Shown here: piece after piece, positions 8,230 through 34,603 of the stretch | How the letters are laid out: each line of letters begins with the position of its first letter | How positions within the stretch are numbered: position 1 is the stretch's first letter | Source: a virus | Taxonomy: Duplodnaviria; Heunggongvirae; Uroviricota; Caudoviricetes | Reading direction: 5' to 3' (one strand) | DNA: 34,603 nt | Virus record (IMG/VR): IMGVR_UViG_2541047739_000006 | Program-made: the position numbers and the translations under genes | Notes under the pieces: generated by a model | The model's database searches: none | What the model was told of the DNA's origin: nothing | What the model saw: only the letters and a program-made list of their open reading frames with translations

Positions 8230-8239
8230 GGATGGAGCC

Positions 8240-11688: not shown

Positions 11689-11706
11689 GCTTCTTCATGT
11701 GCGTAG

Positions 11707-12143: not shown

Positions 12144-12178
12144 GATGCCACCAGCTACTGAGCGGTGGCATTTTTTTG
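12144..12178 (+). terminator. intrinsic terminator
   Basis: GATGCCACC-AGCTACTGAGC-GGTGGCATC stem-loop followed by TTTTTTT. Confidence 0.6.
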
Positions 12179-12272
12179 TGCTATTTGTTTCATATTTTGC
12201 AATTACGATGATGAATATTGCGATTTGTGAAACTATAATAACTGTTGTTTTATACAGTTCTAAGGGGGCGTT

Positions 12273-12434: not shown

Positions 12435-12450
12435 AAATGGATGGCATCGC

Positions 12451-12912: not shown

Positions 12913-13583
12913 TTACCCATATAGCTTATAAACATCTCAATCGTGCCGTATACGAAAAAGGCGGTGATGGTGGTGCCTCTAAAGCTCAGGCGAAGGCCCA
13001 GCAGCAGGCAATTGATTTGCAGCGCGAGCAGTGGAATACGGTGATGAATAATCTCAAGCCGTATGCAGAAGTCGGATTGCCTGCTTTACAACAACTACAA
13101 GGACTGATGACTCTGGAAGGGCAGAATAAAGCCGCGAATGATTTCTTTGGTTCTGGTTTATATAAAACACAGGCAGATCAGGCCCGTTATCAGAACCTTG
13201 TCTCAGCAGAAGCTACCGGGGGGCTTGGCTCAACAGCTACCAGTAACCAGTTATCTTCCATTGCGCCCATGCTTTATAACAATTGGCTCAGTGGGCAAAT
13301 GCAAAATTATGGAAACCTGCTAAATGTCGGGATGAATGCGGCATCAGGGCAGGCAACAGCAGGGCAAAACTACGCCAATAATACCGGACAACTCTTGCAG
13401 GGGCTTGGCGCTATTCGTGCAGGTCAGGCGCAGCAGCCATCCAGTCTTGCGCGTGGTATTGGTGGGGCGGCATCAGGCGCTTTAGCGGGTGCGCAACTTG
13501 GTTCCGTTGTTCCGGGTATAGGTAATGTCGCCGGGGCTATTGGTGGTGGGCTTATTGGTCTTGTTGGGGGGCTTGGATTCTAA
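12906..13583 (+). CDS. Q/G-rich hypothetical protein with glycine-zipper C-terminus (possible phage ejection/internal protein)
   Basis: 225-aa ORF overlapping the upstream stop; C-terminus GGAASGALAGAQLGSVVPGIGNVAGAIGGGLIGLVGGLGF. Confidence 0.65.
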   Translation: MLITHIAYKHLNRAVYEKGGDGGASKAQAKAQQQAIDLQREQWNTVMNNLKPYAEVGLPALQQLQGLMTLEGQNKAANDFFGSGLYKTQADQARYQNLVSAEATGGLGSTATSNQLSSIAPMLYNNWLSGQMQNYGNLLNVGMNAASGQATAGQNYANNTGQLLQGLGAIRAGQAQQPSSLARGIGGAASGALAGAQLGSVVPGIGNVAGAIGGGLIGLVGGLGF

Positions 13584-14327
13584 TGGCGACATGGCAACTT
13601 GGCGGGCTGCCTAGCATGGCACCGCAAAATGATAATGCTCCTCGTTCTTCCGTTCCTCAGCCTGTGCAGTATCAGCAGCAGCCAAACGTAGGTTTAATGG
13701 CGCTACAGGGGCTAAGAGGCGTTGCTGAGATTAATCAGCAGGCACGTCAACAACAGCGTAAAGCAGAGTTTCAGAAAGCATATGCCGGGGCTTTTGAGTC
13801 TGGAGACAGAAACAAAATGCGCAGTCTTATTTCTGAGTATCCAGAAGAATTTGAAAGCGTTCAGAAAGGGATGGGCTTTATTGATGACGACCAGAGAAAT
13901 TCTATTGGTCATCTTGCGACTAGTGCTCAAATCGCATCTTCGCTCGGAACTGGGGCATTTGGAAAATTCATAGCAGATAACGAAGATGAAATGCGTCGTT
14001 TGGGAATTTCTCCTGAGTCTGTTGCCGAAATGCATGTTAATGATCCACAGGGATTCCAGCGGCTTGCTGGTAGTATGGCACTGTTTTCTCTCGGTCATGA
14101 GAAGTACTTCGATATCAAAGATCGAATGGAAGGTCGGGATATTGAGCGTGGCAAGTTGGCAGAGACGATCCGCAGCAATCAAGCCGGAGAAGCACTTCAG
14201 GCGAGAGGGCAGGATATTAGCCGAGCAAATGCGTTAACGTCAGCATATGCACCAACAGCCGCAATGCAGAATTACAATCAATACGCGCAAATGTTAAAGG
14301 CGGATCCAGAGGGGGCTGCGGCATTTG
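13583..14327 (+). pseudogene. hypothetical phage-like protein, 3'-truncated by IS1
   Basis: ORF starts at the upstream stop (ATGG overlap) and runs into the IS1 end at 14328; the apparent stop lies inside IS1. Confidence 0.6.
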
Positions 14328-14342
14328 GGTAATGACTCCAAC

Positions 14343-14846
14343 TTATTGATAGTGTTTTATGTTCAGATAATGCCCGATGACTTTGTCATGCAGCTCCACC
14401 GATTTTGAGAACGACAGCGACTTCCGTCCCAGCCGTGCCAGGTGCTGCCTCAGATTCAGGTTATGCCGCTCAATTCGCTGCGTATATCGCTTGCTGATTA
14501 CGTGCAGCTTTCCCTTCAGGCGGGATTCATACAGCGGCCAGCCATCCGTCATCCATATCACCACGTCAAAGGGTGACAGCAGGCTCATAAGACGCCCCAG
14601 CGTCGCCATAGTGCGTTCACCGAATACGTGCGCAACAACCGTCTTCCGGAGCCTGTCATACGCGTAAAACAGCCAGCGCTGGCGCGATTTAGCCCCGACA
14701 TAGCCCCACTGTTCGTCCATTTCCGCGCAGACGATGACGTCACTGCCCGGCTGTATGCGCGAGGTTACCGACTGCGGCCTGAGTTTTTTAAGTGACGTAA
14801 AATCGTGTTGAGGCCAACGCCCATAATGCGGGCTGTTGCCCGGCAT
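14343..14846 (-). CDS. insB: IS1 InsB
   Basis: Identical 167-aa InsB as at 5821..6324. Confidence 0.95.
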
Positions 14847-15040
14847 CCAACGCCATTCATGGCCATATCAATGATTTTCTGGTGCGTACCGGGTTGAGAA
14901 GCGGTGTAAGTGAACTGCAGTTGCCATGTTTTACGGCAGTGAGAGCAGAGATAGCGCTGATGTCCGGCGGTGCTTTTGCCGTTACGCACCACCCCGTCAG
15001 TAGCTGAACAGGAGGGACAGCTGATAGAAACAGAAGCCAC
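14765..15040 (-). CDS. insA: IS1 InsA
   Basis: Identical 91-aa InsA as at 5627..5902. Confidence 0.95.
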
Positions 15041-15104
15041 TGGAGCACCTCAAAAACACCATCATACACTAAATCAGTAAGTTGGCAGCATCACCGGGTG
15101 ATTA

Positions 15105-17210
15105 ATGGCTAAAGCATGGAAAGATGTTATCGCCTCTCCACAGTATCAGGCGTTAGCACCAGAACAAAAAGCGCAGGCTCAGGAGCAATACTTCAATGAA
15201 GTCGTGGCCCCGCAAGCCGGAGAAAGTGTAGCGCAGGCTAAGCAGGCTTTTTATGCTGCCTATCCACTACCATCAACGAATGAAATAGACCGATCCCAAT
15301 CAGCAACTCAAAATATTCAACATACATCATCTGATAATTCTCTTGCGTCAGGGTATGCAAAGTTAGCTACTCAGCAAAGAGAGGGGCTTGAGCGTTCAGC
15401 AGAACAGGGAGCCAGTCTTGGGGCTGCGATGCGCGATGCTATAACAGGCGAAAGCCGAATGACTCCAGAGATGGAGAGACTGCAAAATGTCGACCTTGCC
15501 CCAGAGTTAACCTCACTCAGCATGGGTGCTCTAAAAGCTCGATGGTCTCAACTTTTCGGCTCTGACGCATCTCAGGAAAAGATTCTTCAGAGCATGGGAG
15601 CGAAATTAAGGCAGGATGAGAAGGGTAACACTATCGTTTCCCTGCCATCCGGTGATTATGCTCTGAACAAGCCGGGTTTATCGCCGCAAGACGTGGCATC
15701 GTTTCTGGCTAATGCGCTGGCGTTTACACCAGCGGGCAGGGCTGGAACGGTGCTTGGTGCCATAGGAAAATCAGCAGCTACAGATTTAGCACTACAGGGA
15801 GCCACCAGCCTTGCTGGTGGAGAAGATATTGATCCGTTACAAACGGTAATTTCTGCTGGCATTGGTGGTATTGGTAAGGGGCTGGAAAATACAGCGAGTG
15901 CGGTTTCGAGGGCTGTTCGTGGTGATATGTCGCCTGAAGCAAAGGCTGCTGTCAACTTTGCATCGGAAAGAAATCTGCCGTTAATGACCAGTGACATGCT
16001 GAAAGATAAAACCTTTATGCAGAGTCAGGCTCAGACATTAGGCGAAAGAGTTCCTTTTTTTGGAACCGGTAAGAATCGGCTGAATCAACAACAAGCACGA
16101 GAAAATTTAGTCAGAACATTTAGCGATGGTCTGGGTGGCATTTCTGATAAACAGCTTTATGAATCTGCGACTAAAGGGCAACAAAAATTCATTGAGGCAG
16201 CAGGAAAGCGATATAACCGCATAATTGACGCTATGGGGGATACCCCTGTCGATCTCTCAAACACGGTAAAAGCTATCGACAATCAGATTGCCGTGTTAAG
16301 CCGCCCGGGCAAATCTCAGGATAGAGCCGCGGTAAAAGTCTTGCAGCAATTTAAAGACGATATCACCAGCGGACCAAATGACCTGCGTCTGGCGAGGGAA
16401 AACAGAACCGATCTTCGAAAGCGATTTATGGCGTCATCTGACACTGTTGATAAAGATACGCTCCAGAAAGCCAGCGATATTATCTACAAGGCATATACGG
16501 CGGATATGAAAAAAGCCGTAGCCAAAAATCTTGGAGCAGACGAAGCCATTAATATGGCAAGGGTTGATCGGTCATGGTCTAAATTCAATGACATGATGGG
16601 AAGAACGCGCGTTCAAAAGGCAATAGCCAGCGGTAAGGCCACGCCTGAGGATGTAACAAAACTCGTTTTTAGCCAAAGCCCATCAGAACGTTCTCAGCTT
16701 TACAGGCTTCTGGATGACAATGGTAGGCAAAACGCACGAGCAGCCATAGTTCAGAATGCTGTAGATAAGGCGACTGATCCGTCTGGAAATATCAGTGTTG
16801 AGAAGTTTATTAATGCGTTACACCGGAACAGGAAGCAATCAGCAACTTTCTTTAAAGGCGTACATGGAAAGGAACTGGACGGCGTTATTAAATACCTCAA
16901 CGATACAAGACACGCGGCAAAAGCGAACGTTCAAAACTTAAATGGTCAGCAGCTTTATGGATTGTTAGTTGGTGGTGGCATCATAAACGCAGCAGTATTA
17001 GCGGGGATGCTAAAAACGGCTGCGTTTGTTGTTCCTGCTGCTGGTGCCGTAGGCGGAGCAGCGAAGGCATACGAAAGCCCTGTTATACGAAATGCCTTGT
17101 TACGTCTGGCAAATACGCCAAAAGGTAGCACAGCATATGACAGAGCGATCAGTACGGTCACACAATCGCTCACCAGAGTCGCACAGGCATCACAAAAAGA
17201 AGCTCAATAA
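15105..17210 (+). CDS. large A/Q/G-rich hypothetical protein (possible phage ejection / DNA-transfer protein)
   Basis: 701-aa ORF starting 10 nt after the IS1 end (in-frame TGA 2 codons upstream); low-complexity coiled-coil-like N-terminus and hydrophobic glycine-rich C-terminal segment. Confidence 0.65.
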   Translation: MAKAWKDVIASPQYQALAPEQKAQAQEQYFNEVVAPQAGESVAQAKQAFYAAYPLPSTNEIDRSQSATQNIQHTSSDNSLASGYAKLATQQREGLERSAEQGASLGAAMRDAITGESRMTPEMERLQNVDLAPELTSLSMGALKARWSQLFGSDASQEKILQSMGAKLRQDEKGNTIVSLPSGDYALNKPGLSPQDVASFLANALAFTPAGRAGTVLGAIGKSAATDLALQGATSLAGGEDIDPLQTVISAGIGGIGKGLENTASAVSRAVRGDMSPEAKAAVNFASERNLPLMTSDMLKDKTFMQSQAQTLGERVPFFGTGKNRLNQQQARENLVRTFSDGLGGISDKQLYESATKGQQKFIEAAGKRYNRIIDAMGDTPVDLSNTVKAIDNQIAVLSRPGKSQDRAAVKVLQQFKDDITSGPNDLRLARENRTDLRKRFMASSDTVDKDTLQKASDIIYKAYTADMKKAVAKNLGADEAINMARVDRSWSKFNDMMGRTRVQKAIASGKATPEDVTKLVFSQSPSERSQLYRLLDDNGRQNARAAIVQNAVDKATDPSGNISVEKFINALHRNRKQSATFFKGVHGKELDGVIKYLNDTRHAAKANVQNLNGQQLYGLLVGGGIINAAVLAGMLKTAAFVVPAAGAVGGAAKAYESPVIRNALLRLANTPKGSTAYDRAISTVTQSLTRVAQASQKEAQ

Positions 17211-21279: not shown

Positions 21280-21378
21280 ATGGGGGTACTTTTGGGGGTA
21301 TCTATAAAAAATGAACAATAAAAAAGGCAACAAAAACAAAGCTTATCGCCTATGTGTATTGTTCCTATTATCGCACAA
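21280..21378 (+). other. putative attR of the P4-like element (arm-type repeat ATGGGGGTACTTTTGGGGGTAT plus degenerate core TCCTATTATCG-CACAA)
   Basis: 21/22 match to the arm repeat at 1557; TCCTATTATCG at 21363..21373 matches the thrW 3' end at 1428..1438, then diverges. Confidence 0.4.
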
Positions 21379-21983
21379 TCAAGAAAATCAATAACTTAGC
21401 TTAACTTCTCTAAGAAATTGTATCTTCTGTTATCACTTACAAACGCCTATACGTTGTTATGGGCTTTGGTAGTGTAACACGTATGGGCGAGTAGTTCCCA
21501 GGCTCAACCTCGTAACAAGTTCCTTTGAAGCTGGAAGACGTGCCACCGTCTCTAAACCTTCTACCAAAACTCTTAGCAAGATGTTCCACACCTGGCGCGG
21601 TGTCCAATGATGCTACACGTCGTGAGACGTTGCAGAGGATAAACAGGCTAAATGATGGGAAGAGTTTTAAGTGCAATAGTGGATCAAAGCCCACCTCTTC
21701 AAAACCTAACTTGATCGGGAAAGAATCAAGCTCTAGCACGGTTTCGTCCACCGGAGTACAACGGGTGCCTGATAAGAGAAGAACTGCTAAGACTTCATAG
21801 CTTTTGTGAAAAAGCCCTTTTAGTGGATACGCCTACGGCGCTTATTTTTTGGGGTAGCCCATCAAAGGCGCTTTATGGCTCCTATTGTCTTGAAAATGTA
21901 TCTTTACTTGTATTGTGTTTTATGCGTAGTCTCCCTGTGTAGTATGTAACTTGTTAATTTTCATATGAATACAGAGGCACACG

Positions 21984-22142: not shown

Positions 22143-22310
22143 AAATCTCCAGAACGCAACAGGACGCATTCTAACGCTATTTTCATTGCTTGGTATAGGG
22201 ATGTATAGGTGATGTGTGTTTAATGCGTCTGTGCGCTTGTTTTGTGCCTTATTTTGCATTTTCATAATGCAGAAGAGAACACGGAAAACCTTAAAATTAA
22301 TTATTGGGGT

Positions 22311-22472
22311 ATTTAAGGGTATTTTCAGGTGATTTAAGGGTATTAAACTTGATTTAATTGATTAAAATATAAACAGATAGTTGTGTATCTTATTGATTTA
22401 TAAGGTTATTTTTAAATAAAGGTAAATAAAAAATAAATAGCCATAAATAGCTATAAATACATCTAAATACCT
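22311..22472. repeat. direct repeats ATTTAAGGGTATT x2 (22311, 22332) and four tandem ~10-bp units TAAATAsC (22434..22472)
   Basis: Read directly in AT-rich non-coding DNA; helical-turn periodicity. Confidence 0.55.
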
Positions 22473-22610
22473 ATATCCCTTCCCTTATGGCTAGATTGCG
22501 AGAGGTGCTTAACGCGATTTTCAGCGCCCCCCGATCTGGAAAATCCAGAATCCCCAAATATCAGCAAGGAATTTTCTTGCGTAATCAACATCGTTTTTAC
22601 CTATTAAATC

Positions 22611-23925
22611 ATTACACAGAAAGCCTTTCTGTAATGTCTCTCACTAAACTTTCACTAAACACGAGAATGATCGGTTTTATGTCGGATCAGATGCTAGAAA
22701 CAGCACCACGTCTCACAAGGACTGTAAGCGATGAAACCAGTGTTTATGCGGGTGCAGGTCAAAATATAGGCCAAAATCAATTTAACATAATAAACGTAAT
22801 ATGCACTAAGGAACACATAGAACGCCTTGAGTTGATGTATCAGGGGAAAAATGATGGATTTTTTACGTAGGAGCACGAGAGGGCTTCTGTTGACTTTTGT
22901 ATGCTATGAAACATAATTAAAGGTTTTTTTGTTTTTATTGTGTGATGTAGTGGATTACACAGGGGAATAGATTAAATGGTGTTCTGTTTATACAGGTTTA
23001 TTTGTTAGATCAACAATTTGGCATTTCTAAACAGATGTTTGAACGTTGCCAAATGTCTTGACAACACAAGAAAAGGGCTTGCTATGCCACGCATTACACG
23101 AAATAAGGCTGTAAAAACAAAATAAATTTTAAAATTTGCACAAACGAGAAAACTCGTTAAGAAACAAGCAGAACAATTTTTAGCCAACAATTTCTGATGG
23201 TGCTCTGTAGGCCGCACTACACAAGGATTTGCGAAAGTGATGTAAAAGTGAAGAAAGTAAGAATTGCACTTTTAAGCTACTTTTCATTGAATTTTTAGTA
23301 TGGAATTACACAGGAATAAGTTAGGGATATTCTATGATTTACACAGGGAATATAGGGGATTATGGCACACACATAGAAAGGCATTACACAGAGTGAGTGC
23401 TATGTGATGATTGGTAGTAACGGTAGGTCATAGTGAGCTAGGGGGTAGGTCACTGTGAACTACAATAAGACTATTAATAAAACTATATTAGATTATTAAT
23501 TAGATCATAATAATAATATTCTTTATATCTATATATATGATCTTTTGCCTTCCGGCGTTAGCTTCACTCTCTGGCAAGCAGCCTTACTCCGCTACCTTTC
23601 GGGCTTCGTGGCTGGCCCGTTCCGCTCACACCGAAAGCAAAGCGTTACTTTCTTCGTGTAACTTCGTTGGCGGTAACGCCCACGAAGAAATCTATTGCGC
23701 TGTGCGCAGTAAGAGTAATCACCTAACCAATCATACTGATTGCTTATGTGTTAACTCTCTCTAACTCTTAATTACCCTCCTACATTTAATAACTCTGTTA
23801 TTCTCTGTAGTTGTGTAATTACTCGAAGAGAGAGCGGCTAAAGCTCAATTACACTCTGCTTTCCTCGTGTAATTTCACTAAGCCTCAATACAATTTCACT
23901 TCCTACATTCTGTAGTCGTGTAATT
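22611..23925. repeat. dispersed iteron-like motif ATTACACAGG(G)AATA: about six forward copies (22611, 22954, 23093, 23305, 23337, 23383) then about four inverted copies (about 23655, 23813, 23866, 23916)
   Basis: Read directly; forward copies cluster upstream and inverted copies downstream of a GC-rich hairpin island. Confidence 0.55.
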
Positions 23926-24561
23926 GTTTTCGGTGGAAAAGCCAGAGGCGACACCGAAAGAGAATTCTGATCTTATTAATCTTATCTATCTTAGTTAATC
24001 TTCTTACTTATCTTACTTACTTTATCTACTTTATTATTAATAATAGCTTTATAAGCTCTCTGTGTAGCTCTCTGACGCAAGAAACAGCATTCAGGAAGGG
24101 AATCACCTTAGAAAAGGTGTTCTTTGCGTCATAATGTGTTTTATGAAGGATTCAGAGGTGTTTCATAACAGGAATGTATAGAGAATACTTTAGGTAATTA
24201 AAAATAAGGGGTCTAAATGCTTCTCTAACAGCATTAAGCAGGGTAGGGAATGGAAACGCATTGCCTACATATAATAAACTCACTACAGGGCTTTACAGGG
24301 CGTTTTATAAAGTGACTCTCTGTTTTATATCTACAATCACCTTTTCATATACCTAACAAATACAAAATAAGCCCCTTAAATAAGCCTCTGGCGAGCTAAA
24401 CAGACATTACATAAGAGAATGTATTGCTTTTATCAAAACTTCGTTAGAACGCGTTTTAGAGCGTTTTAGCGGATAATGAAGAATAGCACTACACAGAAGA
24501 GCACGAATTGCCAAGACAAATTATAACATGCTGAAAAAGATCGATTTTTTCGAAAAGGGTA

Positions 24562-24590
24562 TTGACAAATGTTTCTTTATATGTAATAAT
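24562..24590 (+). promoter_or_regulatory. sigma70-like promoter (TTGACA, about 17 bp, AATAAT) preceded by palindrome TTTTCGAAAA
   Basis: Consensus -35 at 24562..24567; AT-rich -10 at about 24585; about 115 nt upstream of the first gene of the operon. Confidence 0.35.
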
Positions 24591-24703
24591 AGGTATTAGA
24601 GGGACAGAAAAACATTCTTCTCTAAATAATCAAAATCAATGCACTTTGAAGCCGTCAGGCTTGCAAGGTGTTTTATTTCTTTTAACTGAATAAGGAGTTT
24701 TTT

Positions 24704-24892
24704 ATGAAATGGTTTACACCGGAGCACGTCGTAAAGGCATTTAAAAAAGGTGAGCTTACACGCCACCAAATAGTAATGAATCGTAATATGGCAAGGAGTC
24801 GAGGTTATCCAGAGCGAGCAGCTTGCTTCAATGAAGCACTCAAGATTATTGATGAACTAAGAAAAAATGAAAAAGAATCTGAAACAGAGTAA
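24704..24892 (+). CDS. hypothetical small protein
   Basis: 62-aa ORF with AAGGAG 7 nt upstream of ATG. Confidence 0.55.
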   Translation: MKWFTPEHVVKAFKKGELTRHQIVMNRNMARSRGYPERAACFNEALKIIDELRKNEKESETE

Positions 24893-24911
24893 AGAAGAGA
24901 AGGAGAAAACT

Positions 24912-25082
24912 ATGAGCGAAGCTACAGAAAAGAAAAGACAACCACGCACTTGCTTTCATATTCCTGATGAAGTATTTCAGGTGTTGTTTAAAGAAGCCAG
25001 AAGTAAACGTATCACTGTTACAGATTACATTCTTGATATGTTGAAAAGAGAGGCTGAAACACTCTCAAATAAAAGCAAGTGA
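24912..25082 (+). CDS. small putative DNA-binding protein (56 aa)
   Basis: AAGGAG 7 nt before ATG 24912; the listed 24867 start overlaps the upstream gene. Confidence 0.5.
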   Translation: MSEATEKKRQPRTCFHIPDEVFQVLFKEARSKRITVTDYILDMLKREAETLSNKSK

Positions 25083-25135
25083 TTTTTATCACCATAGTAG
25101 CGCCATAGAGCGTGATTACATCAAGGAGATTTTTA

Positions 25136-25828
25136 ATGATTAACCAACTAACTTTTACAAAACACTATGACACGTTTGATAATATATCAAAGATTTATTC
25201 TGATAAATTCCCTCAAGGAAAAGATTTAGATCTATTACATATTGTGCTTTATTTTCGATTCCTTAGTTATCAGGAAAACAACCTTAATTGTTATGAAAGT
25301 CACGAAACATTAGCTAAGATTTTTAAGTCTTCACCATCAACAATTAAACGTAAGATAAACGATCTTAAAGAGATGGGATTATTAGAAACATCCCCACATC
25401 CTGATCCGTATATTTCATCTTTGATTTACAATGCTCTCCCTCTCACAGATGCACATATTACTCCCCCAGGAGAATCATCACTCTCTGATCTTTCTGAGGC
25501 AGAAGAAGCACAGGAACAACCTAAAGGCCATAAACAGCCTTCTTTTGATGTTCTTGATGATGATTGGGATACGCCTTTACCCTGGGAGACGGAAGAAACA
25601 CCTGTTTCATCAAGTGAAAAGGTAGCTAATGATAATGAGGAGGATGTGTTAGAGAATTTTGCCTCTCTTATCATCCAGGAGAAACACAAAAGAACAGGAG
25701 GGGCATCATTTATAGAATTTGCAAATTCACTAGCTTGTAGATACGGGCTAAAACGACCAAATGGTATTGAGGCATATTTTTCTAAGCATTACCCAAATGT
25801 ATACGAAGACTTTGATATTCCCTTTTAA
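25136..25828 (+). CDS. replication-initiator-like protein (wHTH N-domain, acidic linker)
   Basis: AGGAG before ATG 25136; ETLAKIFKSSPSTIKRKINDLKEMGLLE helix-turn-helix; acidic stretch DLSEAEEAQEQ...DDDWDTPLPWETEE. Confidence 0.6.
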   Translation: MINQLTFTKHYDTFDNISKIYSDKFPQGKDLDLLHIVLYFRFLSYQENNLNCYESHETLAKIFKSSPSTIKRKINDLKEMGLLETSPHPDPYISSLIYNALPLTDAHITPPGESSLSDLSEAEEAQEQPKGHKQPSFDVLDDDWDTPLPWETEETPVSSSEKVANDNEEDVLENFASLIIQEKHKRTGGASFIEFANSLACRYGLKRPNGIEAYFSKHYPNVYEDFDIPF

Positions 25829-25844
25829 AAAGTAAGGAGGACTA

Positions 25845-26123
25845 TTGATACAGTATTTAATAAAAAGCAAAGTAGACAGAATTCAGTGTAACGACACAGG
25901 AAAACGCATCTACGAAACGCTTGCTTACCTCTATAAAGGAAAGCCAACACCGCTAAAATATAGCGATGTGTTACATCGAGCAGGTTGCTCTGAGTCAGGT
26001 TTAAAATTCTGGCTGAAACAGCTATCAAATTTCGGTGTTATTGAAATGAAAGAGCTGTCTTTCTCTACATTTAATCTCAAAAGACTAGATAAAGAAATAG
26101 AATTCATCTATTCCACTCTCTAA
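25845..26123 (+). CDS. hypothetical small wHTH-like protein
   Basis: 92-aa ORF with AGGAGG upstream. Confidence 0.55.
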   Translation: MIQYLIKSKVDRIQCNDTGKRIYETLAYLYKGKPTPLKYSDVLHRAGCSESGLKFWLKQLSNFGVIEMKELSFSTFNLKRLDKEIEFIYSTL

Positions 26124-26255
26124 AATCTCTCTATGTAATTAAAATATAAAAGGAAAACATTATTATGATAGTAGCTATGTATTGGTTATTGTTCTTTCTC
26201 ACGTTAGAAGCATATTTCGGGGTGTTTTCCTTTAAAAGAAAAGGAAAAGTAAATT

Positions 26256-26666
26256 ATGGCAAAAAGAAAAAACAACGTTGTTAAGAAAATCGGTGATTCA
26301 GCTTCTCTTCTAAGTAAACCTAAATCTATTCTAAAACGTAAAGACTTTAAAGAGCTAGTTACGCTCACCAAGCATAATAGCGCCCCTGGCGAATGGAAAA
26401 CAGAGATCATAGAACATTCTCCCTCTGTGCCTTGTGGAGATGAATATATCGCCTTACAAGAAATCTTATCTTCAACACCTGGCGTGTTCTGGAAACCTAA
26501 AAAAAGAAAAGAGTATATCGTTGATAGCTCTGATTTACGCAAATACCAGATTTTAGGATTTGAAGATTATAATCACTACGTTGGTTATCTCGCCACAAAT
26601 GGCCTAAATAATTTAGTTCCTGAATTCCAGATTTTAGATAATGCAGATCACTATGGAGACTTTTAA
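26256..26666 (+). CDS. hypothetical protein with basic N-terminus
   Basis: 136-aa ORF starting MAKRKNNVVKKIG. Confidence 0.6.
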   Translation: MAKRKNNVVKKIGDSASLLSKPKSILKRKDFKELVTLTKHNSAPGEWKTEIIEHSPSVPCGDEYIALQEILSSTPGVFWKPKKRKEYIVDSSDLRKYQILGFEDYNHYVGYLATNGLNNLVPEFQILDNADHYGDF

Positions 26667-26667
26667 T

Positions 26668-27006
26668 ATGAACAAAAACACGTATGACACAATTTACTCA
26701 CTAATTAATTATTATGAGGATGATTACCTCCTGCCTTTAAACCGCGCTGAACTTGAAGCATACAAAGAAAACACGCCAGCGGCACTAAATGAGGCGTTTA
26801 AACACTGGGATTTAGCTGTGAATGCCTTTGAGCACCTCTCTAAGCGTGTAGAGATGCTCTGTAAGCGCGAAAACGCATACCTGACAGCCGATCAGGTATG
26901 GGAATTATCAAACTGGATAGAAGATATTGAATCTGATGTTCGCTATGTGGGAGATGGACTTGTTGAACTAGCGCAACGCTTAGGCGCTACTATCACAGAA
27001 GAATAA
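26668..27006 (+). CDS. hypothetical protein (113 aa)
   Basis: ATG 26668 right after the upstream stop, GGAG upstream; the listed 26641 start overlaps. Confidence 0.55.
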   Translation: MNKNTYDTIYSLINYYEDDYLLPLNRAELEAYKENTPAALNEAFKHWDLAVNAFEHLSKRVEMLCKRENAYLTADQVWELSNWIEDIESDVRYVGDGLVELAQRLGATITEE

Positions 27007-27256
27007 AAAAAGCAACAAAAAAGTTGTAAAATATCTTGGCATTCCATCTATTGTATGTTAATATAATTATATAGGGGTGATTATTTTTCCTTTATTGGTT
27101 CGATATTAAAAATTCTTCCTGTCATTAAAGGGGAGTAAAATCTCCGCTCCCCGCTTCTTCTCCTCCTTAAGTAAATACTGTGCCATTATACCTCTTTGTT
27201 ATGCATACATCTTGGAGTATGCATAACATAGGGTAATTACATAGGTATGAGTTAAT

Positions 27257-27288
27257 AAAAGGCGGCTTTAAATGCTGCCTTTTATTTT
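27257..27288 (+). terminator. intrinsic terminator between the early and structural operons
   Basis: AAAGGCGGC-TTTAAAT-GCTGCCTTT stem-loop followed by TATTTTG. Confidence 0.45.
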
Positions 27289-27350
27289 GCCCGTTATACA
27301 ACTTAAAAGTTGTATTTCTTACTTTAAACAAGGTAACAAGGTTTATATAA

Positions 27351-27563
27351 ATGTTGCTCTTAAATGATAAAGAGCAAATCATCAAGTATAAAGATGAAAT
27401 GCTGAAAATTAATCCACAAATTACCGAAATGGTAGCTAAATACGCTGGGTGTTCTGTCGAGGAAGTAGAAAGATGTGTTGAAAAATATTTTTCTCCTTCT
27501 TCTCCGTCTACACCTTCCCTTAATGAATTAATCAAATTAAAAGCTAAGGAGATTACTAAATGA
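27351..27563 (+). CDS. hypothetical small protein
   Basis: 70-aa ORF; its stop overlaps the next start. Confidence 0.5.
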   Translation: MLLLNDKEQIIKYKDEMLKINPQITEMVAKYAGCSVEEVERCVEKYFSPSSPSTPSLNELIKLKAKEITK

Positions 27564-27922
27564 TTATTGATTTAGACACTCTGTTTCCAGTTCGAAAGAC
27601 TTTCACGGATATTGTAAGTTATTGTACTGATCCGTTTGCCTCTGTAGAAAGCAAGGTTTTTGCTTCTCTTCCTGCTGATGTTGAGTGCGGCGACTTGATC
27701 ACCAGCACTGGCGCTAAATATGAATCAGGAGATGATATTTATGTTGTTATGAGTGAATTTGTAACGGCTGGAGAAAACAAGCCTGTAGATGTGCTACGTA
27801 GCAATGCTGGGCTTGTATGCATCAAAGCTGATGCGCTGAATGCTGTAAGTGAAGCAGCAAAAACAGCATTAATTAAAAAAGGCTTTCAGCTTGAAGGGTT
27901 CCATTCTGTTTTCACTTCTTAA
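27560..27922 (+). CDS. hypothetical protein (possible scaffold/decoration-type partner of the next gene)
   Basis: 120-aa ORF, ATGA-coupled to the upstream gene, 18 nt before the 342-aa gene. Confidence 0.6.
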   Translation: MIIDLDTLFPVRKTFTDIVSYCTDPFASVESKVFASLPADVECGDLITSTGAKYESGDDIYVVMSEFVTAGENKPVDVLRSNAGLVCIKADALNAVSEAAKTALIKKGFQLEGFHSVFTS

Positions 27923-27940
27923 TAAAAGGAATAATAATAA

Positions 27941-28969
27941 ATGATTCTAGGTAATGATTACGTTGATTTAGCTCCTCTGTTCTCTGCGCATAGCACTAGA
28001 AATTATCTACTTTCTACTCTCGACTTCACTGATCCGGTGGGCGTTAGTTCTCATAAAGTAGCTGTTTCCCAGCTTGTCGAAAGCAACGAATCTCTCTTTA
28101 ACAAAGAGACAAGCCGTTTTAGTTCTGAACACAATGTTACTAAGCGAGAACAAGGTAAAGAATGGCTGATCGAAATCCCTTACTTCCTGCGTGAAGATGT
28201 GATCCGTCCTTCTGATGTTCAAGGCAAGCGTAAGCCTGGCACTGATTTTCAGGAAACACTCACTGATATTTATGCTGACTATGTTGCTAAACACCACGTA
28301 GCGTATCAGCGTACAAAAGAGAGCGTGCTGGCTGCATCTCTGTTTAGCGGTAAAACTTACACGCCTAAAACTGATGATGTTCTTATCGAGTGGAGCAAGC
28401 TGTTTAACGTATCAGCTATGAAAGCCACTGTGAACGCTTCCAGCACTGACACCACGAAGATTTTTAAAGAATTTGATCAGATTGCTACTGACATTATCGA
28501 AAAAGCACAGAGTCAGGCGGCGGCTGTAGAGCGAATTGTTGTTTTCTGTAAGCCGGAAGCCTTCTCTGCAATTCGATTCTCTGCTGGTATGGCAAACGCA
28601 TTCCAGTATGTAAGCCCACTGGAAGAGGGGAACGTTGTGTATCAGCGTCGTGACCTGCTGCCAGGGGTGACAGCGTTCACTATTCCAGGAACTAACATTG
28701 ATGTTGTTAAACTGGTAGATCCGCTACACCTGGCACATATGACCGCAGACGCTGTAGCTGTGCCTAAATTCTCTAAGGGTAGCGGAATTTATACCAACAT
28801 CTACGGGGCTGCTTCCAGCACCTTTGAACTGATTAATGCCGCTCCTGCTGAGGTGTATAGCTATAGCTATGAATCTTCTCGTGGTGATGCTGTTAACGTT
28901 GTTACAGAGAATAGCCAGATGGTGGTAAACCACGGTGTAGGCTTCTCCGTTCAAATCACTGTTAAATAA
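27941..28969 (+). CDS. major structural-like protein (342 aa), family unknown
   Basis: Long ORF followed directly by a strong intrinsic terminator, as for a highly expressed capsid or coat gene; beta-rich C-terminus. Confidence 0.75.
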   Translation: MILGNDYVDLAPLFSAHSTRNYLLSTLDFTDPVGVSSHKVAVSQLVESNESLFNKETSRFSSEHNVTKREQGKEWLIEIPYFLREDVIRPSDVQGKRKPGTDFQETLTDIYADYVAKHHVAYQRTKESVLAASLFSGKTYTPKTDDVLIEWSKLFNVSAMKATVNASSTDTTKIFKEFDQIATDIIEKAQSQAAAVERIVVFCKPEAFSAIRFSAGMANAFQYVSPLEEGNVVYQRRDLLPGVTAFTIPGTNIDVVKLVDPLHLAHMTADAVAVPKFSKGSGIYTNIYGAASSTFELINAAPAEVYSYSYESSRGDAVNVVTENSQMVVNHGVGFSVQITVK

Positions 28970-28987
28970 TATTTTAACGTGTAATAG

Positions 28988-29022
28988 AGGCGTGGCGTGA
29001 ATAACACGCTTCGCCTTTTTTT
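28988..29022 (+). terminator. intrinsic terminator
   Basis: AGGCG ... inner hairpin GCGTG-AATAA-CACGC ... CGCCT followed by TTTTTTT. Confidence 0.6.
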
Positions 29023-29055
29023 ATTTATTTTTAAATTTTGAGAGGTGATTAAAAT

Positions 29056-29259
29056 ATGGAAGTGATTTTGAAATCAAAAAATGGTGTACACGTACATTTA
29101 GATGCTAATGATTCTAGAGGATTGTTAAATCTGAAATATCTCTGTTCTCTTTTAGATGTTCCCTATGAAGGAGTAAAAGCCCGTATGTTCAGATTAAACG
29201 AGAGTATTGATCAGGCTCTACACCATTTCTTAAGCAAAGAAGGTGGTAAAAATGATTAA
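29056..29259 (+). CDS. hypothetical small protein
   Basis: 67-aa ORF with GAGAGG upstream. Confidence 0.5.
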   Translation: MEVILKSKNGVHVHLDANDSRGLLNLKYLCSLLDVPYEGVKARMFRLNESIDQALHHFLSKEGGKND

Positions 29260-30178
29260 TAAGGGGATTTTAAATGTTAGAAATTAACACTTCTAAAATT
29301 AAGAACACAGTAACATTTAGTGTAGATAAAGACAGCTTGAAAAAAGCGAAAGACTCTATTACAGGCTTAAAGGAATTTGCAGAGAATATCAAGCCAGCTA
29401 AGTTAAGGTTTGATAATGTCACTAAAGGCTATAAGAAAGCACAAAGTGAAGTAGACAAGATTGCTCAACAGAAAGCTAAAGCCGAAAAACAGAATCAAAG
29501 AGTACAAGCTGCCGCAGCAAGAGCACAGGCAAGGCAACAGCAACAAATAGCAGCACGTAAAGAGAAAGCAGAATTAAAACTCCTCGATGTGTCAAGCTCT
29601 ATCAGTGCAATGCACCGTCTCTCTGTAGCTGAACAATACAAAGCTATTGCACAGGCTAGAGAAATTGCCCTCCAATATGAAAGAGGCGCTATTAGTCTGG
29701 CACGTATGAATAGCCAGATGAAACGCTTACAACAGCAACAACGTAAGATTAATGGCAACAGAAAAGCACAATTAGCCCCCGTTAAGGGAGGATCAGGGAA
29801 TTCCGCCACTATGGGCGCTCTGTTATTTGGAGGCGCTACGGCTGCTGCTGGCGTGATGGCTGTTAGTAAAGCGTCGGAGTTTGTTAGTAGCAGTTTCGCT
29901 AACGCAGAGACCCAAGGGGAGCTAATCCAACGTGCAAGGCTTGGCGGTGTAGACGTTAACCAGATGTATAATATTACAGAATGGGCGTATAGAAACGGCG
30001 TTGACTCTATGATGGGTGATCAAGGGGCTAGGAAATACCTGGATCAGATGAAAGATGTTAGGGAACGTGCCGCAAAATCCTACAGTGAAGCTGAATTGGT
30101 GAAAGACAAGAAAACCGGAAAATCTGAATGGAAAGGCGGTGATAATGCTATTAATGAACTTCTAAACTGGATTTGCCC

Positions 30179-31084
30179 CTATATTTCCAGACATCTGTTA
30201 TCACTTAACCCATTACAAGCCCGCTGCCGCAGATATTCCCGTGGCGAGCGATAACCCAGCGCACTATGCGGATGCCATTCGTTATAATGCTCGAACGCCT
30301 CTGCAAGGTTCTTTGCTGCCGTTAACCCGTCTGGTTTGGGCATGATACTGATGTAGTCACGCTTTATCGTTTTCACGAAGCTCTCTGCTATTCCGTTACT
30401 CTCCGGACTCCGCACCGCCGTGTTCTTCGGTTCAAGTCCCAACATCCGGGCGAACTGGCGTGTTTCATTAGCCCGGTAGCATGAACCATTATCCGTCAGC
30501 CACTCCACTGGAGACGACGGAAGATCGTTGCCGAAGCGGCGTTCCACCGCTCCCAGCATGACGTCCTGTACTGTTTCACTGTTGAAGCCGCCGGTAGTGA
30601 CCGCCCAGTGCAGTGCCTCACGATCACTGCAGTCCAGCGCGAACGTGACACGCAGTCTCTCTCCGTTATCACAGCAGAACTCGAACCCGTCAGAGCACCA
30701 TCGCTGATTGCTTTCTTTCACGGCCACTCTGCCTGTATGTGCCCGTTTCGATGGCGGTACAGCAGGTTTTCGCTCAAGCAACAGCGCATTCTGGCGCATG
30801 ATCCGGTAAACACGTTTGGCATTGATCGCAGGCATACCATCAAGTTCTGCCTGTCTGCGAAGCAGCGCCCATACCCGACGATAACCATACGTGGGCAGCT
30901 CTCCGATAACATGGTGTATACGGAGAAGCACATCCGTATCATCAGTGTGACGACTGCGGCGGCCATCCATCCAGTCATCGGTTCGTCTGAGAATGACGTG
31001 CAACTGCGCACGCGACACCCGGAGACAACGGCTGACTAAGCTTACTCCCCATCCCCGGGCAATAAGGGCGCGTGCGCTATCCAC
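30179..31084 (-). CDS. insD: IS2 OrfB transposase (InsD)
   Basis: 301-aa [34 protein letters not shown]...; recognised IS2 InsD. Confidence 0.93.
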
Positions 31085-31407
31085 TTTTTTGCCCGTCCAT
31101 ATTCAACGGCTTCTTTGAGGAGTTCATTTTCCATCGTTTTCTTGCCGAGCAGGCGCTGGAGTTCTTTAATCTGCTTCATGGCGGCAGCAAGTTCAGAGGC
31201 AGGAACAACCTGTTCTCCGGCGGCGACAGCAGTAAGACTTCCTTCCTGGTATTGCTTACGCCAGAGAAATAACTGGCTGGCTGCTACACCATGTTGCCGG
31301 GCAACGAGGGAGACCGTCATCCCCGGTTCAAAGCTCTGCTGAACAATTGCGATCTTTTCCTGTGTGGTACGCCGTCTGCGTTTCTCCGGTCCTAAGACAT
31401 CAATCAT
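31042..31407 (-). CDS. insC: IS2 OrfA (InsC)
   Basis: [41 protein letters not shown]...; recognised IS2 InsC. Confidence 0.93.
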
Positions 31408-32473
31408 CTGCTCTCCAATGACTAGTCTAAAAACTAGTATTAAGACTATCACTTAAATAAGTGATACTGGTTGTCTGGAGATTCAGGGGGCCAGTCTATA
31501 AACATCGGTGTTATTAACAAAAGCGACCTTAAAAAATTTGCTGATAATCCGGCTGGATTAATTTCTAAGGCTGTTAATGGAATGATGAAAAAAGGGTTTT
31601 CAGACTCCCAAATTGGACAACGTTTAGAAGACCTGGGCGATGATTTGATGCTTACGTCAAAATATTGGCAACGTTCCGTTAAAGATGTACAAGAAAGTAT
31701 TAATCAGCAAAAAGCCTCTGGAAAATGGCTAACAGAAACACAGCAAGACTCTATTGTTAAATTCAGAGAACTAAACAGACAGCTTTCACAGCTTTCTGAT
31801 GCAAGACAAGTAGCATTCGTAGACGGCTTTATGAAATCTCTCGATCCAAAAGTAACGGAAGAGTTTATGAAAAACCTTTCTAATCTCACTCCGTATTTTA
31901 CGAAGCTGGGAGAAGCTACAGGAAGTCTCTTTGAAGCTATTATGAAGATTGTAAACTGGTTTAATCGTAATGATGATAAGACAGATGCTATTCAGAAAAA
32001 TATGGGTGATGCACCGCCATTAAGCAATGAAGGGATGAAACAGAATCTTTCTAATCTCGTTCCTAATCAATATAAAGGCGCTGGCACTGCAACAACTACA
32101 CCTGATAATAGTCATTCTCTCTTTAACACAATTAAGGGATTGCTTTTCGATGATAATTCTTCTGTGTCAGATGTAAAAATGTCAGTCAATGAAGCACCGA
32201 TAACCAATCTCAAACAGGGTGCTTTAAATAATCTTGCAATGACAACTCCAGCTTATAATTTATCTCCTGTGTTTAATCTGAATCCTACATTTGAAGTGGT
32301 AACAGAAGTGCCGCTAACTATCGAATCAGACACCGGACGATTGAGCGATTATGTGGATTTTACAGCGAGAGCAAGTCGGGATAGCTTCTTGAAATCATTA
32401 ACATTAACCAGCTTATCAGGACAATCCAACGGCGGGTAATTCCCGCCATAACATTACAAGGAAAATTATTATT

Positions 32474-33187
32474 ATGGCGACCGCCGGGATTTTAACCATA
32501 CGTGCAGCAAATACTCCAGAACAACACGTTCAGGCTGTTTACAAAGCAGAACAAGATATAAATTCTACAAAAAACGAAAATAGCAAAGCTAATAAAACAA
32601 AAGGAGAGAACGGATTTGCTATTGTTACCAGTGGCTTGGCATCTTCTGGTAATGACGTTTATGAAAATTATATGGCACTGGCCTTTGATAGTGTTGACGA
32701 TGTGAACGTGAGACGTTCGGCAGATGTCACAAGCTACCCCGTAGAAAATGGTGCTACTGTGTCTGATCACGTTCAAATTAAAAACAATAAGTTCTCTCTT
32801 AAAGGGCGTATCACTGAAACACCGATTAAAAGCGATCCTGGCTTGTTAAAGAGTGCAGGGGTGAACGGGAACAGAAGATCATTAGCTATAGACTACTTGA
32901 ATCAGATTATGGACAGTAGACAGCCTTTTCTTCTTGTTACAGAAAATAAAACTTTTGAGAACGTTGTTTTAACAGGCATCGAATACACAGAAGAGGCAAG
33001 CGAATCCCTGGTATTTGATCTTAGCTTTGAACAAATAAGATTAGTTTCTTATGGTACTGTAAACACTGTAGCTATCAAAACACAGCCATCTAAGAACATC
33101 GGGGCGAATATGAAAAAACGTGTTAACACTGAAAAATCAAGTAGTGAAGGTGAAGACACTATTACTCCTGCCTTTAAACAGGAATAG
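32474..33187 (+). CDS. hypothetical structural-like protein (237 aa)
   Basis: Follows the IS2-split gene on the same strand; no recognisable catalytic motif. Confidence 0.65.
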   Translation: MATAGILTIRAANTPEQHVQAVYKAEQDINSTKNENSKANKTKGENGFAIVTSGLASSGNDVYENYMALAFDSVDDVNVRRSADVTSYPVENGATVSDHVQIKNNKFSLKGRITETPIKSDPGLLKSAGVNGNRRSLAIDYLNQIMDSRQPFLLVTENKTFENVVLTGIEYTEEASESLVFDLSFEQIRLVSYGTVNTVAIKTQPSKNIGANMKKRVNTEKSSSEGEDTITPAFKQE

Positions 33188-33268
33188 CCGTAAATGCCTC
33201 TAAAACGCTCTGTAACGATGTAATTATAAAAGAGGCTACCAATCTATGTTGAAGCCTCTTTATTGCGT

Positions 33269-34603
33269 CTATGGCGTTGTTTTGCGCATTAAATTTGATT
33301 TTTTATTGATTGATAAGCCTTTCTCTATTTCAGGGTAGCGTAGAAGCTCAATATAGTTTTTAAGCTCTACTGGAGAAGCTGCATTCTTGCTATATGTGCG
33401 GAATGTCTCTGTATTGCCGCGTGTATGGCCCAGGAGAAGGGCGATCCTGTCTTCTGGAATTTGATTTCGATCAAGAAGCTGTGCTACTCCGTGTCTCAGA
33501 GAATGAAACACCTTCCTTTCTGTTCCCTTTTCCCCTAAAGCCTTTCGTTTAGCTCTTGTAAATCTCTGCGTGTGCCACGTGGAACGTTTACCATCAGCAC
33601 GCTCTGTAATGCTGGCGTGATAGAACAAAAAGCCATTATGAGGCTTTTCACGCAGCGACAACACCAACGGAGTGATAAGGCTATGCACAGGCACAAGACG
33701 TGCCGCAGCTTTCGTTTTTCCCTGTGTGATTTCAAAACACAGCACACCTTCGATCTCTTTCACATCGTCTATTGTGAGACTTGCTATCTCATTGATCCGC
33801 ATACCTGTATAAGCACCGATAAGACACAAAGCCATCATTTCTTTGTTTTCTGCTGAATCACCGGAAAATACTTGCAACACCTGCAATAGCTCTTTGTTAG
33901 AAAATGCCTCGTAGCTCTCTCTACTTTGTGCCACATCAAGCCTATGCCCTCGCCAGGGGGAGAGCGCCCTTTCTGGCGCATCGTGGTAACGTGATGAAGC
34001 TAACTCCCATAGCTGGGCCATTGGGCTGATATAATTTGCAATTGATTGTTGTGAAAGGGTTTTTTGCATGTGTTCTATCCAGCCTGTAACAGTGGTGCGG
34101 CTTACATCTTGCAATGCAATATCAGGCTTTTTACGGTAGGAGAGAAACATCTCTACCGCTTTTCTTGCCTTAGCTAAAGTGGCTGGCTTCTTCTTCGTGC
34201 TGTTAATTGTCAGGTAGATTTCAAGAATTTTAAGCAATGACGGACACGAAGACGCTGTATCTTGCATTCTGGTAGCTGTTTTGGCGTATTTAGCCTTACT
34301 GCGTAACAGTTCCAGCGTGTTCTCTATTGTGCTGTTTACAGGGGCGACACTCTCCCGTAGACAATGGTATTCATCTGCAATCTGATCACGCTTTCTACGT
34401 GCAACACGAAGACTACTTGTGTGCAGACTTCTGACAAACGTCCTTTTTCCTTCAAAAAAGGGCTGCATATACACAGGCAACGTGATCCTCAAATAGTAGT
34501 TACCGTAAGAATCACAGATTATGTATTGATTGGGCTTGTATCTCATAAACTCCCCGGCTAAAGTGTCGGAGCGTTTGTAATGTGAAAATTGATTGTAACG
34601 CAT
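33269..34603 (-). CDS. tyrosine site-specific integrase (second element); 5' end at window edge, possibly incomplete
   Basis: 444-aa ORF with tyrosine-recombinase motifs (YTGMRINE arginine, HSLRH, LLGHT, nucleophile Y in TFRTYSKN); the initiator ATG is the last three bases of the window. Confidence 0.85.
   Translation of the reverse strand: MRYNQFSHYKRSDTLAGEFMRYKPNQYIICDSYGNYYLRITLPVYMQPFFEGKRTFVRSLHTSSLRVARRKRDQIADEYHCLRESVAPVNSTIENTLELLRSKAKYAKTATRMQDTASSCPSLLKILEIYLTINSTKKKPATLAKARKAVEMFLSYRKKPDIALQDVSRTTVTGWIEHMQKTLSQQSIANYISPMAQLWELASSRYHDAPERALSPWRGHRLDVAQSRESYEAFSNKELLQVLQVFSGDSAENKEMMALCLIGAYTGMRINEIASLTIDDVKEIEGVLCFEITQGKTKAAARLVPVHSLITPLVLSLREKPHNGFLFYHASITERADGKRSTWHTQRFTRAKRKALGEKGTERKVFHSLRHGVAQLLDRNQIPEDRIALLLGHTRGNTETFRTYSKNAASPVELKNYIELLRYPEIEKGLSINKKSNLMRKTTP

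Follow-up and report, generated by a model that had tools for sequence, protein, structure and literature searches.

In a 34,603-nucleotide stretch of DNA (IMG/VR record IMGVR_UViG_2541047739_000006, referred to at its full length as the window), a gene for a tail tape measure protein (TMP) is split by the insertion sequence IS2. The gene belongs to the second of two tandem elements, an island of ~12.5 kb that extends from position 21363 of the window to beyond 34603 (element 2). The sequence relationships of this island and its analogy to described satellites suggest that it is probably a helper-dependent satellite of virulent Stephanstirmvirinae phages (Justusliebigvirus, Phapecoctavirus), in which it would build chimeric tails.

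The split gene encodes a tape measure protein

The two parts of the gene and the components of the insertion are as follows.

29274-30167, plus strand: 5' part of the tape measure gene, codons 1-298 (from the reading of open reading frames [ORFs] and their rejoining)
30163-30167: target duplication TAAAC, copy 1, belonging to the 5' part of the tape measure gene
30168-31498, minus strand: IS2 (IS3 family), 1331 bp (from sequence identity, element ends, and the RefSeq annotation of isolate AF3)
30179-31407, minus strand: IS2 transposase, with a programmed frameshift in the RefSeq annotation of AF3
31499-31503, strand not assigned: target duplication TAAAC, copy 2, adjoining the 3' side of IS2
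31504-32439, plus strand: 3' part of the tape measure gene, codons 299-609 and the stop, carrying the C-terminal motif common to phage TMPs

Residues 154 to 609 of the rejoined protein match PHROG 16051, "tail length tape measure protein" (E 6.5e-52); Pfam (E up to 1) and NCBIfam searches matched no family. When the protein was compared by tblastn with 50,697 phage records, 134 of these were matched, nearly all of them ~145- to 150-kb myophages of E. coli and Klebsiella from the Stephanstirmvirinae (phi92, VEcB, and phiWec188 among others), at 31 to 38% identity. With the pairwise alignments included, its identity to the TMPs of phi92, phiWec188, and more than 100 related phages is 26 to 38%. 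The protein matched in phi92 is gp134 (659 aa), and the one in phiWec188 is a 651-aa protein found in the same position and aligned end to end. Among solved structures, chain V of PDB entry 21vq (Phi92_gp134) is matched with an E of 1.2e-38. Cryo-electron microscopy of phi92 has identified gp134 as the trimeric TMP in the baseplate, with its C-terminal residues 631-656 in the baseplate interior, and gp135 as the hexameric tube initiator, in a tail that has 24 tube/sheath rings (PMC13450770).

An alignment of five sequences shows what the island protein has kept of its phage relatives, namely, the N-terminal ~40 aa, the Gly-rich hydrophobic segment, the central NGVDS...KDVRER...WKGGD...GDDLM motifs, and the C-terminal docking motif SD..RLSDY.DF...SLTL..LSGQS, and also what it has lost, the Gly/Pro-rich segment and the Arg/Glu-rich coiled-coil segment of the phage TMPs. 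The N-terminal ~40 aa are near-identical to those of gp134, and the first ~70 nt are ~88% identical at the DNA level. The general traits of TMPs are present: composition, hydropathy, and alignment show a coiled-coil region and a hydrophobic segment rich in Gly, in a long chain that is predicted to be largely alpha-helical. The layout described in the first-pass annotation of this DNA, a long coiled coil rich in Q, A, and K followed by a hydrophobic Gly/Ala-rich segment and a C-terminal domain, is indeed present. Residues 46-170 are 60% Q/A/K/R/E, residues 171-205 are 43% Gly plus Ala and include the hydrophobicity maximum, and a distinct C-terminal part comes after them. The same annotation likened the protein to tape measure or DNA pilot proteins. 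The first likeness is borne out by the PHROG match, the homology to gp134, and synteny, and nothing was found in support of the second. On this homology, the split gene encodes a TMP, and we regard the call as solid. The structure prediction that had been proposed was obtained as a single-sequence model of the intact homologue P0001, the available homologues all being at least 95% identical; it is of low confidence (pLDDT 42), with residues 19-465 helical.

Some TMP alleles of ~74 to 78% identity carry the RefSeq label "flotillin family protein" (NZ_CM172040.1, NZ_OZ501657.1), which is probably a misannotation driven by the coiled coil.

That one gene has been split, rather than two separate genes being adjacent to IS2, was examined by looking for homologues encoded by two naturally separate genes. 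The homologues are single ORFs of 608 to 614 aa, and the phage counterpart is a single 659-aa gene; the check thus did not overturn the reading of one split gene. The protein database contains clusters with thousands of members of 608 to 614 aa from E. coli, E. fergusonii, and E. albertii. Of 5,426 complete E. coli genomes, 486 carry the gene, and in 299 of these a single place accounts for at least 80% of the query. In a spread sample of 60 rows drawn from the complete-genome matches, 38 matches covered at least 91% of the query at 86% or higher identity, and 36 of these consisted of one aligned piece with one annotated "hypothetical protein." The two exceptions were AF3, with IS2, and APEC O1, with two annotated genes.

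The IS2 insertion

The boundaries of IS2 at 30168 and 31498 and the TAAAC on either side, as originally called, were reproduced to the base. The predicted restoration of the frame was recovered as well: positions 29274-30167 and 31504-32439 join into a 609-aa ORF with no internal stop, the insertion point being between residues N298 and I299 (codons 298/299). As it stands, the 5' fragment continues for 28 extra codons into IS2 and stops at 30254, giving a product of 326 aa. The ends of the element in the window are TGGATTTGCCCC... and ...GGGGGCCAGTCTA, and over its 1331 bp it is 100% identical to copies annotated as "IS3-like element IS2 family transposase." Its two overlapping transposase ORFs (31042-31452 and 30179-31084) are on the minus strand, so that IS2 points the opposite way from the tape measure gene.

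An uninterrupted allele, with a single TAAAC, is found in strain M19. In the alignment to the M19 locus (L002), window positions 23422-30167 correspond to 8158-14894 and positions 31499-33310 to 14890-16704; the two window segments overlap by 5 nt on M19, and there is therefore one TAAAC at the empty site. The insertion is not a chance resemblance: the element ends, the 5-bp duplication, the restoration of the frame, and the empty-site allele all concur. The exact junction between IS2 and the gene occurs in 1 of the 5,426 complete E. coli genomes, that of isolate AF3 (NZ_OZ547117.1). Because the junction is this rare and the rejoined ORF has no lesion besides IS2, the insertion is recent.

By the standards of the IS3 family in E. 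coli, where IS2 is carried by 4,854 of the 5,426 genomes, the copy in the window is canonical (1331 bp, a 5-bp duplication, and a two-ORF frameshifted transposase) and the element itself is ordinary. Taken alone, its insertion is a routine gene knockout; its importance lies in the gene that was disrupted. In strain TW10690 (NZ_CP127034.1, 4091693-4094591), the same TMP gene contains an independent IS5-family element of ~1.07 kb. These natural IS2 and IS5-family knockouts provide ready mutant alleles to set beside the intact ones.

The island that carries the gene

The following features were recognized in element 2 outside the split gene.

21363-21379, strand not assigned: degenerate copy of the thrW 3' end (TCCTATTATCGCACAA), left end of element 2 and junction with element 1
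22490-22587, plus strand: non-coding mimic of the inner boundary of a phage terminal repeat (from blastn against phages)
25136-25828, plus strand: winged helix-turn-helix (wHTH), replication-initiator-like protein, 230 aa (from family searches and phage comparison)
27941-28969, plus strand: major capsid protein with HK97 fold, lambda-E type, 342 aa (Pfam PF03864, Phage_cap_E, E 2.5e-14)
28994-29010: terminator-like hairpin, 3' of the capsid gene
29056-29259, plus strand: 67-aa ORF directly upstream of the TMP gene, with an ORF at this position in the island copies examined
32474-33187, plus strand: tube initiator, Dit-like, 237 aa (Pfam PF21821, Dit_like, E 3.4e-29)
33269-34603, minus strand: tyrosine integrase of element 2, 444-aa ORF at the right (attR) end, ending at the window edge (shorter start in the RefSeq annotation of AF3)

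The gene that follows the TMP gene encodes a protein 60% identical to phi92 gp135, which follows gp134 in the phage, and its structural matches include PDB 21vq_N (E 2e-78), the "tube initiator" in 9cuy, and Pam3 gp17. The capsid protein is only ~21% identical to phi92 gp124. The rest of the island consists of an ORF-poor 2.5-kb region, two small ORFs, and five small proteins that matched no Pfam or PHROG family. Family searches of the ten larger products, with four small ORFs outside the scan, found no portal, terminase, sheath, tube, or lysis genes, and protease, wedge, and fiber genes were likewise not detected among these ten. Judged by this gene content, element 2 is neither a phage nor a recent phage fragment.

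Its mobility is indicated by the integrase and the att sites. The same element is found in other strains directly at thrW or at a tRNA-Gly gene, att-bounded, with a length of 12.2 to 12.9 kb and with different integrases; in three of these copies (L009, L010, and L028), attR repeats are located beyond the integrase. The GC content of element 2 is 32 to 40%. In pairwise comparisons of four island alleles (64 to 98% protein identity), dN/dS is 0.11 to 0.28 for the TMP, 0.04 to 0.10 for the tube initiator, and 0.11 to 0.13 for the capsid protein, and these low values argue that all three genes are maintained by selection.

A mimic of the phage terminal-repeat boundary

A blastn comparison of the left 7.7 kb of the island with phages showed that window positions 22490-22535 are identical in 44 of 46 nucleotides to phi92 nt 363-318. 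The left direct terminal repeat of phi92 is annotated in GenBank as 1-343, so that the match straddles the inner boundary of the repeat. The phi92 boundary 343|344 maps between window positions 22509 and 22510, GTGCT|TAACGCG, and a second conserved block, CCAAATATCA, comes after the boundary match. Dinucleotide shuffles produced no chance matches. The island variant of strain HUSEC2011 (O104:H4) does not have the mimic of the window; instead, 83 nt of it align at 81% identity with nt 273-357 of Phapecoctavirus WPEC4. Since the terminal repeat of WPEC4, as determined in this analysis, is exactly 328 bp, this match also straddles a repeat boundary, and in both variants the boundary is placed in GTGCT(T)|AACGCGA.

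The segment is unannotated and conserved in 427 of the 5,426 complete E. coli genomes, in 394 of which the conservation is at least 95%. The phi92 and WPEC4 versions differ by a frame-shifting indel and share an invariant 24-nt DNA block, which argues for a DNA site and against a gene. A small shared gene was considered as a source of the similarity and is unlikely, the 24-nt block being identical in DNA while the flanking codons change. Because this junction in the concatemer is where the right end of the phage genome is cut, the mimic is a candidate site of terminase recognition or cleavage.

Further ties to these phages are found elsewhere in the island. Positions 25095-25143, which comprise the 41 nt upstream and the first 8 nt of the wHTH gene, are ~96% identical to the start of the homologous gene in Mt1B1_P17, and other island variants contain patches of 158 to 242 nt that are 98 to 99% identical to phages PaulScherrer and muut. 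Patches of 49 to 242 nt at 96 to 99% identity indicate recent exchange, presumably in co-infected cells.

How the island would work

If the satellite reading is correct, the helper terminase would recognize the terminal-repeat mimic, and island DNA would be packaged. The island would supply its own divergent capsid protein, TMP, and hexameric tube initiator, the capsid protein building a putative small head. The docking termini of the TMP and the tube initiator stay close to the helper proteins, and on the analogy of the PLEs of Vibrio (elements resembling phage-inducible chromosomal islands), for which this has been demonstrated by experiment, the two island proteins would replace gp134 and gp135 on the helper baseplate hub. 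Helper tube and sheath would then polymerize around them into a chimeric tail, which would be ~two rings shorter than that of the phage, as 609 versus 659 aa is scaled on 24 rings. With IS2 transposed in between codons 298 and 299, the full-length TMP has been lost, and the insertion might have a polar effect on the tube initiator gene as well. The copy in the window would then transfer poorly or not at all, with the rest of the island intact. Of the first-pass view that the insertion probably disabled particle formation or transfer, impaired transfer of the island is plausible, by analogy with the tmp deletions of PLEs.

Several observations weigh against this reading. Induction, packaging, and transfer by a helper are all inferred. 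There is no recognizable primase or helicase in element 2, which has the wHTH protein only. Nor did the searches detect a homologue of a tail assembly chaperone; the 67-aa ORF that precedes the TMP gene shows no Pfam, PHROG, or NCBIfam match and no similarity to phi92 gp133. At 21% identity, it is hard to see how the island capsid protein would fit with the helper portal and scaffold. The mimicry extends to just one boundary of the terminal repeat (a search for the outer, left boundary of the phi92 repeat gave only a marginal collinear match at 23006-23055, E 0.025), and in the variant of strain 47-1826 (L010), even the boundary match is weak. As for particles, the IMG/VR matches are prophage calls from isolate genomes, and the metagenome contigs of 12.2 to 12.5 kb are not circular but represent linear stretches of chromosome with att repeats at their ends. 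In the species-level genome set beyond Escherichia, one further match was obtained, a metagenome-assembled genome with a 25%-identical TMP. Finally, the AlphaFold models are of low confidence.

A broader proposal, that element 2 stands for a widespread and as yet undescribed satellite family of E. coli that exploits virulent 150-kb phi92-like and phAPEC8-like phages, with packaging by boundary mimicry, its own small capsid, its own tail core, and variants matched to helper genera, has in our view about an even chance of being right. The island-bearing genomes include O104:H4, O103, O111, and APEC O1. In the literature on satellites and Stephanstirmvirinae, Phapecoctavirus, or phi92, as far as it was covered, we found no description of the island and no paper that connects E. 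coli islands with Stephanstirmvirinae phages.

Alternative explanations

The island might instead serve only in defense, with the capsid protein, TMP, and tube initiator acting as dominant-negative decoys and the mimic titrating or misdirecting the terminase, without any packaging or transfer; IS2 would then have removed one arm of the anti-phage defense. We consider this unlikely. Blocks of tail assembly are known from Tai systems (PMC11364771) and from Rta of PLE11 (PMC12987554), and such a role would agree with the lack of a recognizable replication module and of particle evidence. However, the integrase, the att sites, and the presence of the same cargo with different integrases at two tRNA loci are those of a mobile element, and the retention of both docking ends of the TMP, along with the tube initiator dN/dS of 0.04 to 0.10, fits incorporation into a tail better than poisoning. 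Also, a PADLOC analysis of ten island products (the TMP not among them) gave only a weak match to a CasR-like HTH. Interference and transfer can coexist, so that a defensive role is partly compatible with the satellite reading.

Quite improbable, by our estimate, is that element 2 is inert debris, a decaying fragment of an old prophage or a product of recombination, in which the TMP is functionless and IS2 is neutral. The window is rich in insertion sequences (two IS1 copies in addition to IS2), the gene is also interrupted by an IS5-family element in a second genome, and most of the island ORFs have no family assignment. On the other hand, the ~148-kb phi92-like phages are recorded or published as lytic, with no integrase in the stretches examined (the structural module and both ends), and the island keeps a fixed compact architecture in hundreds of genomes, the high-identity matches in the sample being nearly all single pieces. 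Decay is also hard to reconcile with dN/dS of 0.1 to 0.3 across alleles of 64 to 98% protein identity and with a non-coding mimic conserved at 95% or more in 394 genomes.

We give very little credence to element 2 as an autonomous small phage, a complete virus that assembled particles unaided, used the 609-aa protein for its tape measure or pilot, and was killed by IS2. The island does encode a capsid protein, a TMP, and a tube initiator, along with an integrase, but no terminase, portal, protease, tail tube, sheath, wedge, fiber, or lysis gene was detected in the ~12.5 kb, and the island has only two inner-core parts of a contractile tail that requires more than 10 other proteins (PMC13450770). 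The suggestion in the first-pass annotation that the second element forms particles is not supported for particles made without a helper. Scarcely credible is a cellular membrane protein, flotillin-like or another scaffold unrelated to phage tails, which would account for the few homologues named as flotillins in RefSeq and for a coiled coil with one hydrophobic segment but not for direct homology at both ends and in the core to a structurally resolved TMP, the synteny with the tube initiator, or the lack of any Pfam family, flotillin included, at E up to 1.

Other features of element 2

The 67-aa ORF occupies the position expected of a tail chaperone gene and might be a remote homologue of one. 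In HUSEC2011, this position holds a 65-aa ORF with no detectable similarity to the one in the window. The 120-aa ORF upstream of the capsid gene shows no similarity to phi92 gp123; the predicted structure of its product is of low confidence (pLDDT 41). Neither this protein nor a 136-aa island protein had a tblastn match in the 50,697 phage records. The wHTH protein has a relative in Phapecoctavirus Mt1B1_P17, with which it shares 29% identity.

Among solved structures, the island capsid protein comes nearest to PDB 9zbi, a 344-aa "Capsid protein" (E 6.9e-11), ahead of phi92 gp124 (E 1.8e-5). Between island variants (L009 9310-10341 versus window 27941-28969), the capsid alleles have 21 to 25% protein identity, whereas the TMPs of the same variants are 64% identical and the tube initiators 60%. 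The head gene of the island seems to have been swapped or to be evolving far faster than the tail-core genes.

The ~2.5 kb at 22143-24703 have no annotated gene and contain short ORFs only, yet they are 89 to 97% conserved among island copies. This segment, which includes the boundary mimic, may be the origin and packaging region. An Rfam scan of element 2 detected no RNA family, and a repeat analysis of the ORF-poor stretch at 21.4-25.2 kb found short, weak repeats only. The best sigma-70-like promoter of the island, TTGACA-17-AATAAT with TG, is at 24562-24590, upstream of the small ORFs and the wHTH gene. The -35 region in extended form, GGTATTGACAAAT, recurs in a promoter-like sequence upstream of phi92 gp121, and the equivalent in phiWec188, GGTATTGACAAAA, is near-identical. 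In many island copies, a serine recombinase of the resolvase family (~179 aa) is encoded near the tRNA-proximal end (L010 3562-4101; L027 1355-1894; L028 1225-1764). The copy in the window does not have it and differs in the segment 22137-22948; mimic and resolvase look like modules that are independent of each other.

Element 1

The neighboring element 1 extends from thrW to ~21363 and encodes an integrase (1610-2824) and a Toprim-DUF927 primase (8929-11688). Its positions 12451-17210 hold a run of homologues of P22-type virion ejection proteins.

12451-12912: DUF2824
12906-13583: P22_gp7 (E 1.9e-72)
13583-14332: Inj_translocase/gp20-like ORF, apparently truncated by IS1 at ~14330-15097
15105-17210: "P22-gp16 family DNA ejection protein," 701 aa

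With ejection genes in element 1 and tail-core genes in element 2, both tandem islands carry DNA-delivery proteins of a presumed helper, which suggests that bringing one's own DNA-delivery proteins is a general strategy of satellites. Element 1 also contains a C4 antisense RNA (Rfam RF01695, 79.9 bits) at 6423-6510, overlapping the start of an Ash-family ORF (6427-6969), and an AntA antirepressor gene (4123-4956). Together, these look like an immunity module of the P1/P7/P4 style. Isolate AF3 is missing ~10.8 kb of element 1 (window ~3543-14343) next to an IS1 copy; the window thus represents a close relative of AF3 or its pre-deletion form, AF3 having an IS1-adjacent deletion.

Comparison with known systems

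The island TMP is homologous to phi92 gp134 over its whole length but only ~30% identical to it overall and 50 aa shorter than its 659 aa, and it starts with ATG, whereas gp134 starts with TTG. The order of the two genes, TMP and then tube initiator, is the same as that of gp134 and gp135. However, gp134 is encoded in a 148-kb lytic phage and the island TMP near the integrase of a 12.5-kb chromosomal island, where no sheath, tube, or chaperone gene lies next to it.

That satellites can encode TMPs has been known since 2025-26. PLEs parasitize ICP1, a virulent myophage of Vibrio cholerae, and have genes of their own for a TMP, a tail assembly chaperone, and a baseplate hub protein; their particles contain the TMP and hub of the PLE and exclude those of ICP1, their chimeric tails are ~10 nm shorter for a TMP difference of 95 aa, and deletion of tmp lowers transduction by 96 to 99.9% (Nature 2026, PMC12987554). 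Otherwise, TMPs are almost unknown in satellites (PMC12987554 and the Mycolicibacterium preprint PMC12822802). Like PLEs, element 2 is an integrative island with its own TMP, shorter than that of the phage, and a helper-related baseplate-core protein, and the relation to a virulent myophage proposed for it, here from sequence alone, is the same. It differs in having no detected tail assembly chaperone, in carrying its own capsid protein, whereas PLEs use the ICP1 coat protein with the TcaP scaffold, in host genus and helper lineage, and in its apparent packaging signal, the mimic of a terminal-repeat boundary. Family searches pointed to no PLE protein, and no PLE sequence was compared; by analogy, element 2 would work like a PLE, but we do not claim it as a member of the PLE family.

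The phage-inducible chromosomal islands of Enterobacteria that form capsids (cf-PICIs) are also small islands of E. coli that have an HK97-fold capsid gene and borrow helper tails, and putative tmp genes have been reported in some of the sampled cf-PICIs (PMC12987554, Extended Data Fig. 10). However, cf-PICIs carry a portal, a protease, a small terminase, and head-tail connectors, none of which were detected among the scanned products of element 2 (67 to 342 aa), and the helpers proposed here are virulent 150-kb myophages. EPIPs, the satellites of Mycolicibacterium phage HerbertWM, encode a TMP and a capsid protein, as does element 2, and have tail lengths unlike that of the helper (PMC12822802). 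They differ in belonging to a Gram-positive-type siphophage system with a serine integrase, a small terminase, an adaptor, a stopper, and extracellular particles. P4-like satellites have a primase-helicase and genes of the sid/psu/delta type, which were not found in element 2. By its gene content, then, element 2 fails the definitions of both cf-PICIs and P4.

To our knowledge, all characterized satellites of E. coli (P4, PICIs, and cf-PICIs) exploit temperate helpers. If the satellite reading is true, satellites of the virulent phi92-like and phAPEC8-like myophages would bring the PLE/ICP1 paradigm to E. coli, and the helpers concerned would be phages that are used against encapsulated and pathogenic strains. 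Stephanstirmvirinae phages, phi92-like and phAPEC8-like, are widely used in phage therapy collections. The island family with phi92-like sequences is present in ~9% of complete E. coli genomes, and, were it a satellite, it could make therapeutic phages less productive or be disseminated with the lysates. It would also offer a second, independent system for studying why satellites replace the tail core, the question left open for PLEs.

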